From: Escherichia coli
GTDB lineage: Bacteria > Pseudomonadota > Gammaproteobacteria > Enterobacterales > Enterobacteriaceae
Assembly (NCBI RefSeq): GCF_009931435.1
Contig: NZ_CP043414.1
Strand: one strand, 5' to 3'
Length of the DNA: 64,000 nucleotides
A program made the position numbers. Below are positions 31,501-37,500 of the stretch, piece by piece; positions within the stretch are counted from its first letter, which is position 1; every line of letters begins with the position of its first letter.

Positions 31501-34500
31501 ATAGACGTGAATGAAATGGCAGTAAATATTATCTCGATGAATTAATAAGGCGCTGTGAAGGATAAGGGCAAGCGCAAAATTGCCAGATGCGCTACGCTTA
31601 TCTGGCCTGCGCGGTCATTGCAACATATTGAATATAAATGTTTTGTAGGTTTGATAAGGCGTTTACGCCACATCCGACATGAACAACACGCACTTAGCTA
31701 ATTATCAGAGGCACCTCGTAAGGCGCCTTTTTTTAACCGAAGCGAACATCTCGTCCGTGCGGTTCATCGAGATCCTGCCACGGACCAATTGAAATAATCC
31801 CCGTAGGGTTGATGGTCTTATGGCTGCGGAAGTAGTGATTACGGATGTGAGCGAAATTGACGGTTTCGGCAATTCCCGGCATCTGGTAGATATCGCGCAG
31901 GAAGCCATACAGATTCAGGTAATCGCTGATGCGGTGCTTATCGCACTTGAAGTGGGTGACATACACCGGATCAAAACGGACCAGTGTGGTCCACAGGCGA
32001 ATATCGGCTTCGGTTAGCTGGTTGCCGGTCAGGTAACGATGCTGACCTAAAATCTGTTCCAGCCGCGCCAGCGATTCAAACACTTTCGCCACCGCCTCGT
32101 CGTAGGCTTGCTGGCTGGTGGCAAAACCGGCTTTATACACGCCATTGTTAACGGTGTCGTAAATCCAGCCATTAAGTTCGTCAATTTTCGTTTGCAGGGC
32201 TGAAGGGTAGTAATCTCCAGCTTTCGCACCCAGCGCATCAAACGCGGTATTGAACATGCGGATGATTTCCGCTGATTCGTTGCTGACAATGGTGTGGTTC
32301 TTCTTGTCCCAGAGTACGGGAACAGTGACACGTCCGCTATAGTGTGGATCGGCGTGGAGATAAAGCTGATACAGAAACTCATGTTGATAGAGTGTATCGC
32401 CGGTTGCTCCCGGAAAACTGTCATCAAAGGTCCAGCCGTTTTCCAGCATTAACGGGTTCACTACGGAAACGGAAATAAACGGTTCCAGCCCTTTGAGTTT
32501 ACGCATGATCAGCGTGCGGTGCGCCCACGGGCAGGCGAGTGAAACATAGAGATGATAACGATCTTTCTCTGCGGCAAAACCACCTTTGCCAGTGGGGCCT
32601 GGCGCGCCATCGGCAGTGAGCCAGTTACGAAATGCGGAAGCTGAACGTTGAAATTTACCGCCGGTGGATTTGGTGTCGTACCAGGTGTCATGCCAGACGC
32701 CGTCAATCAGTTGACCCATTTTTCTCTCCTCCAATAGCAAAAACGAGGAGCGTTTCTCCTCGTTTGAGACTGATGGCAAACGCAAAACTGCCTGATGCGC
32801 TATGCTTATCAGGCCTACGAGGTTTCTGCAATGTATTGAATTTGCATGTTTTTGTAGGCCGGATAAGGCGTTCACGCCGCATCCGGCATGAACAACGCGC
32901 ACTTTGTCAACAATCTGAAACGAGGAGTGTTCCCCCTCGTTTTTTATCGTTAAGTATAGCGCGTACTTACCACTTTTTATTCAACAGACGGTCGATGCTA
33001 TACGCGCCCGGACCGGTAATCGCCAGCAGCAGGAATCCGCCAGAAATAGTCAGGTTTTTCATAAACATCAGCGAGTTCATGCCTTCTGCAAAATTGCTGT
33101 GAAATAAAAATGCCGTCAGCAGCGTAAAGCCCGCAGTAAACAGGGCAGTGGTACGTGTCAGGAAACCGAACAGGATTGCCAGACCACCACCAAACTCAAG
33201 CAGAATCACCAGTGGCAACATAAAGCCAGGGACACCCATCGCTTCCATATATTGTTGCGTACCCGCGTAGCCAGTAATTTTTCCCCAACCTGCCGTAATA
33301 AACAGAATCGGCATTAAAATGCGTGCGACCAGTACCCCAACATCTTCTAATTTTTTCATCTTACTCTCCACTGCGCCGCTCAGGCTGCTGATTGTTTTTT
33401 TGTGCAAGGGCGCGGTATTAGCGTCGTTGCTTTCGATGGAGAGAATCATAAACGTGGCGAAGCGTGATTGTTAGCAAGGAAAACTGTCAAAATTTTTCAA
33501 AAAATTTGAGGGATAAGGCCGGAATGTCTCCGGCCAGAGAGGAAGTTAACCGCGAAGCTGTTGTTGCTTGAGGGTTGTTTTCACCAGACGCCAGGCGCTC
33601 CATACACCAAAACCGCGTCTGGCCCAGCGGACCAGCATATTGGGATGACGAATCGTCCAGATAGCCATCACACTACTGCCAACCAGCGCCCAGGAGCGCA
33701 GACTCAGCAGCATATTCCAGCGACGATCATAAGCGCCTGTCGCCTCCAGCCATTCACGACGACTGGCGGAAAGATCCAGCCGTTGTTGCTGGATCTGGCT
33801 AAGCAGTTGCGCCTTACGTCGTTCACGTTCGACTTTACTGCTCACGGGACTCCTCCTCGAGCAGTTGCCGATCGTTTGCCAGCTCATGGCGCGTATGGCG
33901 CAGTAAGGTGGATTTACGCGATTTACGTAACGTCCAGATACCGCCAATGAGTGCCAGTAGCAGCAACACCACGGTGGTGGCAATCATCGCATTCAGGCGA
34001 TATTGCGGATCAACCGCCCAGATAATCAGCACCATCAGGCTCATAAGACCAAATGCAGCGAAAAGCATCGTCAGGCCCAGCATCAGTAAAAGCTGAAAGA
34101 GATTGGCTTTTTCCTCTTCCAGCTCCACCACCGCCAGCCGCAGACGTGTCTCCACCATTTCAACCATGATGGAAACAATTCGCTGCCCGATGCCCAGAAC
34201 GCTTTTACCGGGCCCTTGCGCGTGATGAGTGTCCGCCATAATTAACGACGCGACAGCAGAACGCCGAGCACTACACCGATTGCAGCGCCAATGCCCACGC
34301 CCGTCCACGGATTTTCACGCACATACTCATCGGCACGCGCCGCCGCGACACGGGTTTGTTTGGCAATGGCATCACCGGTTTCACCCAGGCGATAACGGCT
34401 CTGTTTCAGTGCCTGCTCCGCTTTGCTACGAATCTTACTCAACTCTTCTTTCGACTTCTCGCCAGATGAGCTAAGCACCTCTTCCAGCGTATCGGAAAGG

Positions 34501-37500
34501 GATTTCAACTCAGCACGCAGATGTTCCGTAGTGTGTTCTTTCGACATAGTTTTCTCCAGGTGAGTAAGTAGTGACTATTGTGAGTTAGTAGTCGCGCGCT
34601 TCCAGCTTTTTCAGCTCTTCCTGCGCTTCTGCCAGTTTCCGTTCGCGTTTGGCAATCTTATCGGCATCGCCTTTTTGCTTCGCCTCGGCTAAATCTTGCT
34701 GGCGTTCCGCCACCTCATCTTTCTGCTTTGCGATTTTCTTCTGATGATCGGCACGCAGCTGGCTATCTGAACAGTTGGCCCGGACTTCACTCAGGGCTTT
34801 ATTCAGACCGTCAATACGATTCTGGTTTTGGTGTTTTTCGGCATAGCTGATCTCCTTAAGGATATTTTGCTCCTTTTCCTGACACAGGGTAGTGGCATAA
34901 CTACCGGTACTAAGAGCAAAAAGAGAAACAGCTAAAGCGATGCGGTATTTCATTCTTGAACCTTCCATTGTGATTCGGACCTATTACAAAGGAACGATTG
35001 TCCAGACAACGAAGCGGTAGTGTTGACCACCGCCTCATTAATCATAGACAGTTACGGTGAAATCACCAAAGTGAGTGATCTGTTTCGGATAACAGGAAGT
35101 TATCCGAAGCGATGAGAGTTATCCCGCAATCGGGTTAGCCACTGCATAGCCTGACTATTATTGTCCTGCTGCGCAATGATGTAGCCATGGGGCAATGTTC
35201 TGTCGAGAACCGCTTTTGCTGCGGCACTCTGGTCGCTGGAGTCAAACGTAATTAACAGAGTGTCGTTTTTAGGGGTGATGCTTTTGAAAGGAATGCCGTG
35301 AGCGTCAAGGTGATGCCAGATTGAAAAACCGTCTGGCATCGTTGTGCCTTGATGAACGGCACGAATCGCCAGCGTAGACTCTTGCTGGCGAACCGCGGAC
35401 CAGGCCAGCAACAGCGTGCCGACCAGAAGTAAAACAGCGCCGGACCAGGTTAGCTGGCGAAGCGACATGCGAGGTATTTGCATCCCTTACCCCCGATTTC
35501 CATATTTCTTTTTCCATAACACGACCAGAGAACCTGCCAGGCCAAACACCAGCAGCACCACCGGGAGCAGCATCAGGCATGACATCAGCTGGTCCTCGTA
35601 CTTTAAAAATACCGGCGTTTTGCCGAGCATGTAACCCAGAGTTGTCAGGATTAATACCCACAGCAGACCGCTCATCCAGTTGAAGAACTGAAAGCGCGCG
35701 TTATTCAGCCCTGATAACCCGGCAATCGTCGGCAGCAGTGTTCTGACAAACGCAATAAAGCGACCAATTAACAGCGCCGATAAACCGTGTTTATGAAAAA
35801 GATGGTGTGCGCGTTGATGATAATGCGCGGGTAAATGAGATAGCCAGTTTTGTACGGTGCGGGTATTGCCCAGCCATCGCCCCTGAATATAGCTGACCCA
35901 GCAGCCGAGGCTGGCGGCAACGGTCAGTAGCAGAATCGTTTGCGGATAGCCCATCGCGCCTTTCGCAATCAATACGCCGACCAACACCAGTAAACTGTCG
36001 CCCGGTAAAAAGGCCGCCGGAAGCAAGCCGTTTTCAAGGAACAAAATTACAAATAAAACAAAATAGAGCATGCCAATCATCGACGGATTGGCCAGGGTTT
36101 CAAAATCCTGCGCCCACAGGGCTTGCAGCAATTGGGTCAAAAGTTCCATTCATTATTCCTGGTGAATCGGTTAACGCCACGCTGGTTTTAAAAGATGCAC
36201 TACCGCAATGTTATTGCTTTTTTGGTATGTTCTGCGGGTTTGATACATCAACACAGCCTGAACTATTCCCTGTTAAATCGTGAGATAAGAAAGCATTCAA
36301 AAGCATAAATTCAAATTGAATCTAATTGTAACAAAGGTCAACGTTGTTCGTTATCAAAATTACATGTCCGTGGTGTCTGATTTTGCTGAATGCAGGGGAG
36401 GGAGGCGAGAGGATTTACACAGGCTGACACTTTATACTTTTCGCTTACCGACGAGGCAAACAGGCGCGTCGTTGCGCCTGCCGAATGGGGATTTCATTTG
36501 CTGCCGCTGGTGGCCGTATCAAGATGCACAACGGGATTTTCGGCGAACAGATAGCGGTCGGCATTGAACTCGAAATCGTCGCTGGTTTCGTTAAATAACA
36601 TGATCTTGGTGTTTTCCAGATGCTGCCACATTGCCAGCTTAGCGGCATGGGGATCTTTGCGAATTAACGCTTTGAGGATCTGATCGTGGTCATCGCACCA
36701 GTTATCGACAGTACGGGCATCAATATGCTCGTGCAGTTTTTTCCAGTATGGGTTATGGCTACGTTGGGTCCACATTTTTTCAACGATGGCTGCCAGGGCG
36801 GAGTTCTGCGTCGCCAGGGCAACCTGAATATGGAACTGTAAATCCCATTCGGAATCACGGAAGCATTGTTCGCCGCGCGCCTGCTCCTGGATGGCCATCA
36901 GTTTCATGATGTCCTGTTTAGTTACCTGGGTCGCTGCGAACTCGGCAATATTACTTTCGATGAGCTGACGTGCCTGAAGCAGCTCAAACGGACCGTAATT
37001 GGCGAATTCCATATTAGTGTCAGCCGACTGCTGATGGCGCGGCTGGTTGGAAACCACATGAATACCCGAGCCTTTACGCACCTCTACATAGCCTTCAACT
37101 TCAAGCATGATGATGGCTTCACGAACCACGGTGCGACTGACGTTCTTTTCATCGGCAATAAAGCGTTCAGCAGGCAGTTTATCACCCACCAGATAGACGC
37201 CCTGTTCGATGCGCTCTTTCAGATCAGCGGCAAGTTGTTGATACAAACGGCGTGGTTCAGTGATTTCCATATGCGTCTCCCGGAGTGGAATGCGGACGAA
37301 GTTATCATACCACTTTATTCAAGGGTATGCCATCGTTCATATATAATTATGGTGATTGAATTAATATAATAAATTAATATTGTGAATATTTATAAATTCC
37401 TAAAAATTAAGTGTTGCCATTGTGAAAATCACTATGTTTCAGTAACTTAATTCTTTACTTTTAAATTTAATCTTCACTAAAAATGCTTTTTTATATTGAC

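Follow-up and report, generated by a model that had tools for sequence, protein, structure and literature searches.

The yqjD-yqjE-yqjK cluster of Escherichia coli raises the question of whether the close packing of its genes reflects a fixed stoichiometry of the three small membrane proteins that they encode. We analyzed the cluster in a stretch of 64,000 nucleotides (nt) of contig NZ_CP043414.1 (RefSeq assembly GCF_009931435.1), hereafter called the window. An original prediction made from the sequence of the window proposed that yqjK starts at a GTG codon within the end of yqjE, that yqjE starts immediately after yqjD, and that this coupling suggests a stoichiometric membrane complex of three proteins anchored by the ribosome-associated YqjD. 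According to our analysis, yqjDEK is very probably part of a stress and stationary-phase operon, in which three small inner-membrane proteins are translated serially from one mRNA with two kinds of coupling.

Identity of the locus and gene boundaries

The gene cluster is the already annotated yqjD-yqjE-yqjK of the E. coli yqjCDEK operon, and its boundaries and synteny were known before. The predicted coordinates of the three genes (Table 1) agreed with the sequence itself, with the RefSeq annotation of K-12 MG1655 (b3098, 3249375-3249680; b3099, 3249683-3250087; b3100, 3250077-3250376) and with that of strain N96, which has the identical three genes with identical boundaries. The K-12 genes also have the same order, lengths, start codons, 2-nt gap, and 11-nt overlap. 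A stretch of 1.7 kb comprising the cluster (33400-35100) was matched in 5422 of 5426 complete E. coli genomes; in just 18 of these 5422 did the identity over 1.7 kb reach at least 99%, N96 being among the best matches. The strain is thus unusually divergent at this locus, and N96, one of its top matches, is a Tibetan pig strain. Compared with K-12, 31 differences were found in the 1002 nt of yqjDEK (96.9% nucleotide identity), of which 30 were synonymous. The YqjD protein was identical to that of K-12, yqjE had 18 synonymous differences and no amino-acid difference, and yqjK had 12 nucleotide differences with a single amino-acid change, A35T. Since nearly all differences are synonymous, all three genes are under purifying selection, and the divergence from the K-12 cluster is at the strain level only.

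The yqjE-yqjK junction and the start of yqjK

Junctions were compared in 80 species-level loci of Enterobacteriaceae, collected by a search with YqjK as a single protein, which did not reach beyond this family. The strength of Shine-Dalgarno (SD) sequences was expressed as the predicted energy of pairing with the 16S rRNA tail, with random 20-mers from the window as a background.

The yqjE-yqjK junction reads GAGGAGGAG TCCC GTG AGC AGT AA, which in the yqjE frame is CTC GAG GAG GAG TCC CGT GAG CAG TAA. The SD sequence of yqjK falls in the part of yqjE that encodes the three Glu residues of the Leu-Leu-Glu-Glu-Glu tail. Its pairing energy was -11.8 kcal/mol; just about 0.2% of the random 20-mers reached -10 kcal/mol. 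Across the 80 species the median was -9.3 kcal/mol, 84% of the loci were at or below -6 kcal/mol, and the Leu-Leu-Glu-Asp/Glu codons in the tail of YqjE supplied the SD sequence. At the position of the GTG of yqjK, the aligned codon was a start codon in every species (GTG in 48, ATG in 29, and TTG in 3), the alignment being sometimes shifted by one codon to absorb small indels. In 53 of the 80 loci the yqjK frame was closed by a stop codon no more than 12 nt upstream, so a longer YqjK is impossible there. Distant YqjK homologs recovered by an exhaustive profile search (down to 26% identity) were 91-104 amino acids (aa) long and aligned from residues 1-10. These comparative data favor the GTG at 33845 over any other start of yqjK. 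The GTG start, the strong SD sequence, and the 11-nt overlap with yqjE were therefore predicted correctly, as judged by the sequence, RefSeq, and the conservation of the start in 80 species.

In this strain no stop codon interrupts the yqjK frame over the 138 nt upstream of the GTG, and this segment includes an ATG at 33887. Initiation at this codon would give a protein of 113 aa with its first 14 codons overlapping yqjE, and such a form does exist in public protein sets (P0001). It is nevertheless highly improbable that yqjK truly starts there. The ATG has no SD sequence (+1.9 kcal/mol vs. -11.8 kcal/mol for the GTG), an ATG occurs at this position (-42) in just 5 of the 80 species, and the upstream stop codons and the length of the distant homologs both fit the N-terminus given by the GTG, which is also the start used by RefSeq. 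Public gene calls for yqjK disagree with each other: besides the 113-aa form, there is a form of 124 aa (P0002), in which the stop codon is lost and the C-terminus is extended by readthrough.

The length of the overlap varied considerably. An overlap of 4 nt was the commonest (43 species), followed by 1 nt (13), 8 nt (11), 11 nt (7), and 32 nt (1), and 5 species had a gap of 2 nt. The 11-nt form was confined to Escherichia, Citrobacter sedlakii, and C. amalonaticus (the 7 species mentioned). It is thus a feature of Escherichia and a few Citrobacter, and what is conserved is the abutting of stop and start codons. In classical coupled pairs, such as trpE-trpD and trpB-trpA, the stop and start codons overlap as ATGA or TAATG. 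The yqjE-yqjK junction resembles these pairs in that stop and start abut or overlap, the upstream coding sequence contains the SD sequence of the downstream gene, and the canonical overlap of 4 nt or 1 nt is found in most species. It differs from them by the longer overlap in Escherichia, which results from a YqjE tail that is in a different frame and extended. Translation of yqjK would combine coupling with fresh initiation at its own SD sequence.

Two further observations concern the YqjE tail. Its frame relative to yqjK varies by lineage (overlap of 1, 4, 8, or 11 nt) while the SD sequence stays in place. The acidic end of YqjE (LLEEE/LLEDD) may be conserved for the ribosome-binding site of yqjK as much as for the protein.

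The yqjD-yqjE junction

The junction of yqjD and yqjE (CGTTAATTATGGCG) is of another kind. It has the form CGT TAA TT ATG, with 2 nt separating stop and start. The predicted start of yqjE "3 nt after yqjD" is right if counted by coordinates, the start being numbered 3 lower than the final base of the stop codon, with 2 nt between them. The gap was 2 nt in 64 species and 1 nt in the other 16. No SD sequence was detected upstream of yqjE: the pairing energy was +1.1 kcal/mol in this strain, the median of the 80 species was +0.6 kcal/mol, and none of them was at or below -6 kcal/mol. The yqjD gene itself has a moderate SD sequence with a pairing energy of -6.4 kcal/mol, which is also the median for the 80 species.

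Because the SD sequence is missing and the gap is always 1-2 nt in all 80 species, yqjE is probably translated by re-initiation after yqjD. Ribosomes that have just terminated on yqjD would supply most of the translation of yqjE, in which case synthesis of YqjE would require that of YqjD and would not exceed it. Dependence of yqjE on yqjD translation by re-initiation is probably the most economical reading of a junction without an SD sequence, a feature that also sets it apart from the classical coupled pairs.

The proximity of stop and start codons (a yqjD-yqjE gap of 1-2 nt in 80 of 80 loci and a yqjE-yqjK overlap in 75 of 80) is the architecture of translationally coupled genes. As far as can be read from the sequences, the two junctions use different mechanisms, one without an SD sequence and one with a strong SD sequence. 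For this reason, an equal output of YqjD, YqjE, and YqjK is not implied.

Table 1. Position of the yqjCDEK genes and of the sequence elements at their junctions (coordinates of the window)
Feature	Coordinates	Strand	Description
yqjC	34585..34953	minus	First gene of yqjCDEK; Pfam DUF1090, RefSeq; not tightly coupled to yqjD
SD sequence of yqjD	34554..34557	minus	Moderate (GGAG), 6 nt before ATG; context CACCTGGAGAAAACT ATG
yqjD coding sequence	34242..34547	minus	101 aa, ATG start, TAA stop; open reading frame (ORF) and translation
yqjD-yqjE spacer	34240..34241	minus	TT between the yqjD stop and the yqjE ATG; proposed termination-reinitiation coupling site, no SD sequence upstream
yqjE coding sequence	33835..34239	minus	134 aa, ATG start, TAA stop; ORF and translation
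SD sequence of yqjK	33850..33858	minus	Strong, GAGGAGGAG (contains AGGAGG); 4-nt spacer TCCC to GTG, 6 nt from AGGAGG
yqjE-yqjK overlap	33835..33845	minus	11 nt, GTGAGCAGTAA, from the yqjK start to the yqjE stop; counts the yqjE stop codon; same in K-12
yqjK coding sequence	33546..33845	minus	99 aa, GTG start, TAA stop; ORF and translation
Hairpin	33517..33535	minus	GC-rich, 7 bp, GGCCGGA-GACAT-TCCGGCC; 10 nt after the yqjK stop

Conservation of the gene order

The order yqjD-yqjE-yqjK was conserved in all 80 Enterobacteriaceae loci. More distant contexts were sampled by look-ups of exact proteins, which gave seven loci, six of them distinct (L086 and L087 are near-duplicates). In all seven, with YqjK homologs of 26-36% identity, a Phage_holin_3_6 gene was located directly upstream of the yqjK homolog with an overlap of 1-14 nt. 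A DUF883-type gene preceded the Phage_holin_3_6 gene by 0-9 nt in all distant loci but one, so that five of the six distinct loci had the complete yqjD-yqjE-yqjK order. The yqjC gene (DUF1090) was present upstream in all 80 Enterobacteriaceae loci, some 30-45 nt from yqjD, and was absent upstream in the distant ones; the conserved core is thus yqjD-yqjE-yqjK. The conserved synteny and junctions argue for a functional link among YqjD, YqjE, and YqjK. That DUF883 genes have yqjE-like and yqjK-like neighbors throughout the family has already been reported (Njenga et al., 2024, preprint).

In Pseudomonas aeruginosa, PA3040-PA3042 was described as a counterpart operon, induced in the stationary phase and by envelope stress (PMC11302039). 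As in the locus studied here, it consists of a DUF883/YqjD-like gene, a YqjE-like gene, and a small third gene, less than 15 bp apart. Unlike YqjD and YqjE, neither PA3040 nor PA3041 inhibited growth upon overexpression, and PA3042 was described without a recognized domain (PMC11302039).

Apparent YqjE::YqjK and YqjD::YqjE fusion proteins (P0286, P0266, P0255, and P0312) were considered as Rosetta-stone evidence and rejected as frameshift products. They came from E. coli and Salmonella-like assemblies, one cluster having 74 members. P0266 was an internal deletion, and in one apparent fusion the transmembrane (TM) helix of YqjD was destroyed. These proteins are evidently mutations or assembly errors and do not speak for a natural fusion of the domains.

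Architecture of the proteins

The identities given to the three genes were confirmed by Pfam. YqjD matched DUF883 (PF05957; 1e-13, 49.5 bits, cut-off 25.4) and DUF883_C (PF19029; 1e-15, 57 bits, cut-off 27). According to the hydropathy profile, a helical cytoplasmic part is followed by a sole hydrophobic segment (residues 81-99), after which only RR remains. The ENPW motif places a proline at residue 80, in front of the C-terminal TM helix, as in a tail-anchored protein, and distant YqjD homologs end in the same way. YqjD shares both DUF883 domains with the ribosome-inactivating C-tail-anchored proteins YqjD, ElaB, and YgaM, as well as the proline before a glycine-rich C-terminal TM helix and the terminal RR. 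ElaB and YgaM differ in being subfamilies formed by duplication, and its synteny with genes like yqjE and yqjK identifies YqjD as the archetype (Njenga et al., 2024, preprint). In NCBIfam, just sub-threshold matches to ElaB and YgaM were obtained, for YqjD. Published work describes YqjD as a C-tail-anchored protein that dimerizes via its glycine-rich TM helix, contacts the 50S proteins at the tunnel exit, and blocks the exit tunnel with its N-terminus; ribosome binding, and inhibition of translation in vitro, were reported for the identical K-12 protein. YqjD was thus rightly called a ribosome-associated protein of the ElaB family, on the basis of its DUF883 match here and of the C-tail anchor and ribosome association in the literature. 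The N-terminal peptides MSKEHTTEHLR of YqjD, which also has Ribo-RET and INRI support, and MADTHHAQGPGKSVLGIGQR of YqjE are listed in TRAINSPOTTER Table S1.

YqjE matched Phage_holin_3_6 (PF07332; 3.5e-21, 75.8 bits, cut-off 28.4). It has an amphipathic N-terminal helix (approximately residues 12-45) with a conserved ETRLRLAxxELEEEK motif, two TM helices (approximately 46-76 and 84-104) with a short DPQYR loop between them, and a C-terminal cytoplasmic tail that is charged, first basic and then acidic. Overproduction of YqjE was reported to stop growth, and either YqjD or YqjE overproduced alone is toxic. The family match above threshold, the RefSeq product name "phage holin family protein," the two TM helices, and the growth arrest would all suit a phage-type holin in a remnant lysis cassette, an explanation that we regard as very unlikely here. 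No phage protein family was matched in PHROG, and no endolysin or spanin gene adjoins yqjE. Furthermore, yqjE belongs to the chromosomal core (5422 of 5426 E. coli genomes) and stands between yqjD and yqjK in all 80 species loci in a non-phage context, and DUF883 and YqjK genes are its conserved neighbors in distant bacteria. Judged by family matches and gene context, the holin label of YqjE was not borne out.

YqjK matched the YqjK-like family (PF13997; 4.5e-25, 88.3 bits, cut-off 28.1) and has the length of about 90-105 aa expected of it. An AlphaFold model of YqjK alone, based on 55 diverse sequences, had a predicted local distance difference test (pLDDT) score of 92.6 with helices at residues 2-66 and 68-98. 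A basic N-terminal helix leads to a weakly hydrophobic segment (44-65), followed by a conserved R-x-P kink and a basic amphipathic C-terminal helix. The topology of YqjK is uncertain because its hydrophobic segment has basic residues at either end. A Foldseek search of the Protein Data Bank (PDB) with the YqjK model gave no match, and sequence searches of the PDB with YqjD, YqjE, and YqjK gave nothing meaningful and no solved structures.

Relations among YqjD, YqjE, and YqjK

We propose with moderate confidence that YqjE, with its two TM helices, and the helical, weakly hydrophobic YqjK would act with YqjD as accessory or regulatory membrane partners. At the same level of confidence, YqjE and YqjK would be the tighter pair, with a fixed 1:1:1 complex possible. 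More specifically, YqjE and YqjK could, tentatively, be dedicated partners of YqjD that receive or gate its glycine-zipper helix, for example, and control dimerization under envelope or osmotic stress. The probability left by the two explanations weighed below belongs to looser or regulatory associations of the three proteins.

The stoichiometric membrane complex (e.g., 1:1:1 or 2:1:1) of the original prediction, anchored by YqjD and with its ratio enforced by the junctions, seems to us rather unlikely. The gene order and tight junctions are indeed kept from Enterobacteriaceae to relatives with about 30% identity, the synteny has been described throughout the DUF883 family (Njenga et al., 2024, preprint), and each of the three proteins contains a membrane segment or segments. 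If yqjE depends on the translation of yqjD, as the missing SD sequence implies, this would also agree with such a complex, and the toxicity of YqjD or YqjE overproduced alone could, weakly, fit unbalanced subunits. However, short gaps and overlaps between genes are ordinary in bacterial operons. The overlap of yqjE and yqjK varies by species (1, 4, 8, or 11 nt, or a gap), which does not imply a fixed ratio. Interaction and co-purification data for the three proteins were not found in the literature searched; the sole published statement of an interaction rests on a TM-dimer predictor. Tight coupling in itself, with two junctions that differ and with YqjD sufficient in vitro, does not show a stoichiometric complex, and this part of the original prediction, a plausible hypothesis on mixed evidence, was not supported.

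Several observations weigh against the partnership with YqjD that we propose, or against serial translation from one mRNA, and some of them bear on the stoichiometric complex as well. YqjD alone, even with a foreign TM helix, dimerizes and inhibits translation in vitro, which speaks against a physical complex. One genome (L089; GCA_002933335.1, contig PDKS01000003.1, 1632-3303) keeps yqjE-yqjK at the locus, where yqjD was lost. This AT-rich, apparently reduced genome (23-30% GC) has a yqjA-like gene and intact yqjE-yqjK with a 1-nt overlap; where mzrA, yqjC, and yqjD stand in E. coli, there are 293 nt without an ORF of at least 40 aa, as examined at this locus only. In an AlphaFold model of YqjE and YqjK joined in a single chain by a (G4S)6 linker, with 31 paired rows in the alignment, the predicted template modeling score was 0.31 and the mean pLDDT was 67.6, although such a fusion is not a true multimer test. 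The confidence for YqjK fell from 92.6 alone to about 72 in the fusion, a run with a shallower alignment and a linker. The E. coli genes elaB and ygaM presumably have no yqjE-like or yqjK-like neighbors. Both are paralogs that originated within Enterobacterales when the yqjD lineage was duplicated (Njenga et al., 2024, preprint). In P. aeruginosa, deletion of PA3042 had phenotypes that were absent from deletions of PA3040 or PA3041 (PMC11302039). Global mapping of transcription start sites, as cited by Pourciau et al. (2023), and a Reg-Seq preprint suggest start sites or promoters upstream of yqjE and yqjK; these could uncouple both genes from yqjD. The literature searched gave no experiment that maps the start of yqjK directly, and the TRAINSPOTTER N-terminomics table contains YqjD and YqjE, both with peptides at the annotated starts, and not YqjK. 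The absence of YqjK from this table is uninformative because its tryptic N-terminal peptide, (M)SSK, has 3-4 residues, too few for detection. In the supplementary data of Mori et al. (2021) and of the INRI-seq study, no entries were present for yqjD, yqjE, or yqjK.

Some of these observations point to YqjE and YqjK as a two-protein membrane module of their own, acting, for example, in membrane integrity or permeability under envelope or osmotic stress, and co-regulated with YqjD without binding it. This is possible, if doubtful. It is in line with the yqjE-yqjK junction, which overlaps or abuts in every locus examined, including the distant ones, and with the L089 genome, which keeps this pair and has lost yqjD, yqjC, and mzrA at the locus. 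The growth arrest caused by overproduction of YqjE alone, the phenotypes of the PA3042 deletion itself (PMC11302039), and the self-sufficiency of YqjD in vitro point in the same direction. On the other hand, the start of yqjE without an SD sequence, 1-2 nt after yqjD in all 80 species, would tie the synthesis of YqjE to the translation of yqjD. Just one genome without yqjD was found, it was examined at this locus only, and a DUF883 paralog elsewhere in it is possible. The fused-chain AlphaFold model showed no confident packing of YqjE with YqjK, with the linker and the shallow alignment making it a weak design.

The findings add little to the description of the operon, since genes, boundaries, and synteny are already present in the annotation and in recent papers. 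Their value is modest and twofold, in that existing questions become easier to test. The comparative data settle the start of yqjK at the GTG, which is miscalled by some gene callers, and the junctions contrast a yqjE without an SD sequence with a yqjK that has a strong one. If YqjE and YqjK regulate YqjD, the arrangement would tie the production of a potentially toxic ribosome inhibitor to that of its partners. Should they be its dedicated partners, re-initiation without an SD sequence would ensure that YqjE is made only from mRNAs actively producing YqjD, and a regulatory layer would be added to a widespread ribosome-hibernation system.

Regulation and flanking sequences

Expression of yqjCDEK depends on sigma-S, and a second, sigma-S-dependent promoter for yqjD is located within yqjC (Pourciau et al., 2023). 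CsrA represses the translation of yqjC and yqjD and binds the yqjD leader (Pourciau et al., 2023). Our promoter and terminator scans of the region gave no more than chance, and Rfam gave no match within the yqjD-yqjE-yqjK cluster itself.

The sequence following yqjK forms a GC-rich hairpin. The fold of the segment 33485-33550 had an energy of -16.2 kcal/mol (z = -3.3 vs. shuffles), and the U-tract is interrupted (UUAUCCCUC). The hairpin at 33517-33535 was not called by a simple terminator scan. With its imperfect U-tract, it may be the terminator of the operon or a stabilizer of the mRNA.

The spacer between the neighboring genes yqjF and yqjG (32720-32966) contains an insertion of 178 nt (32752-32929) relative to K-12, which makes it 247 nt long vs. 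69 nt. The insertion carries a sequence that resembles repetitive extragenic palindromic (REP) elements. It has an Rfam match to ES036/CssrF (32811-32851; 38.4 bits, just above the gathering threshold) and a partial match to naRNA4, and it duplicates a terminator-like hairpin located after yqjF. Because of this insertion, yqjG is found at 31733-32719 in the window.

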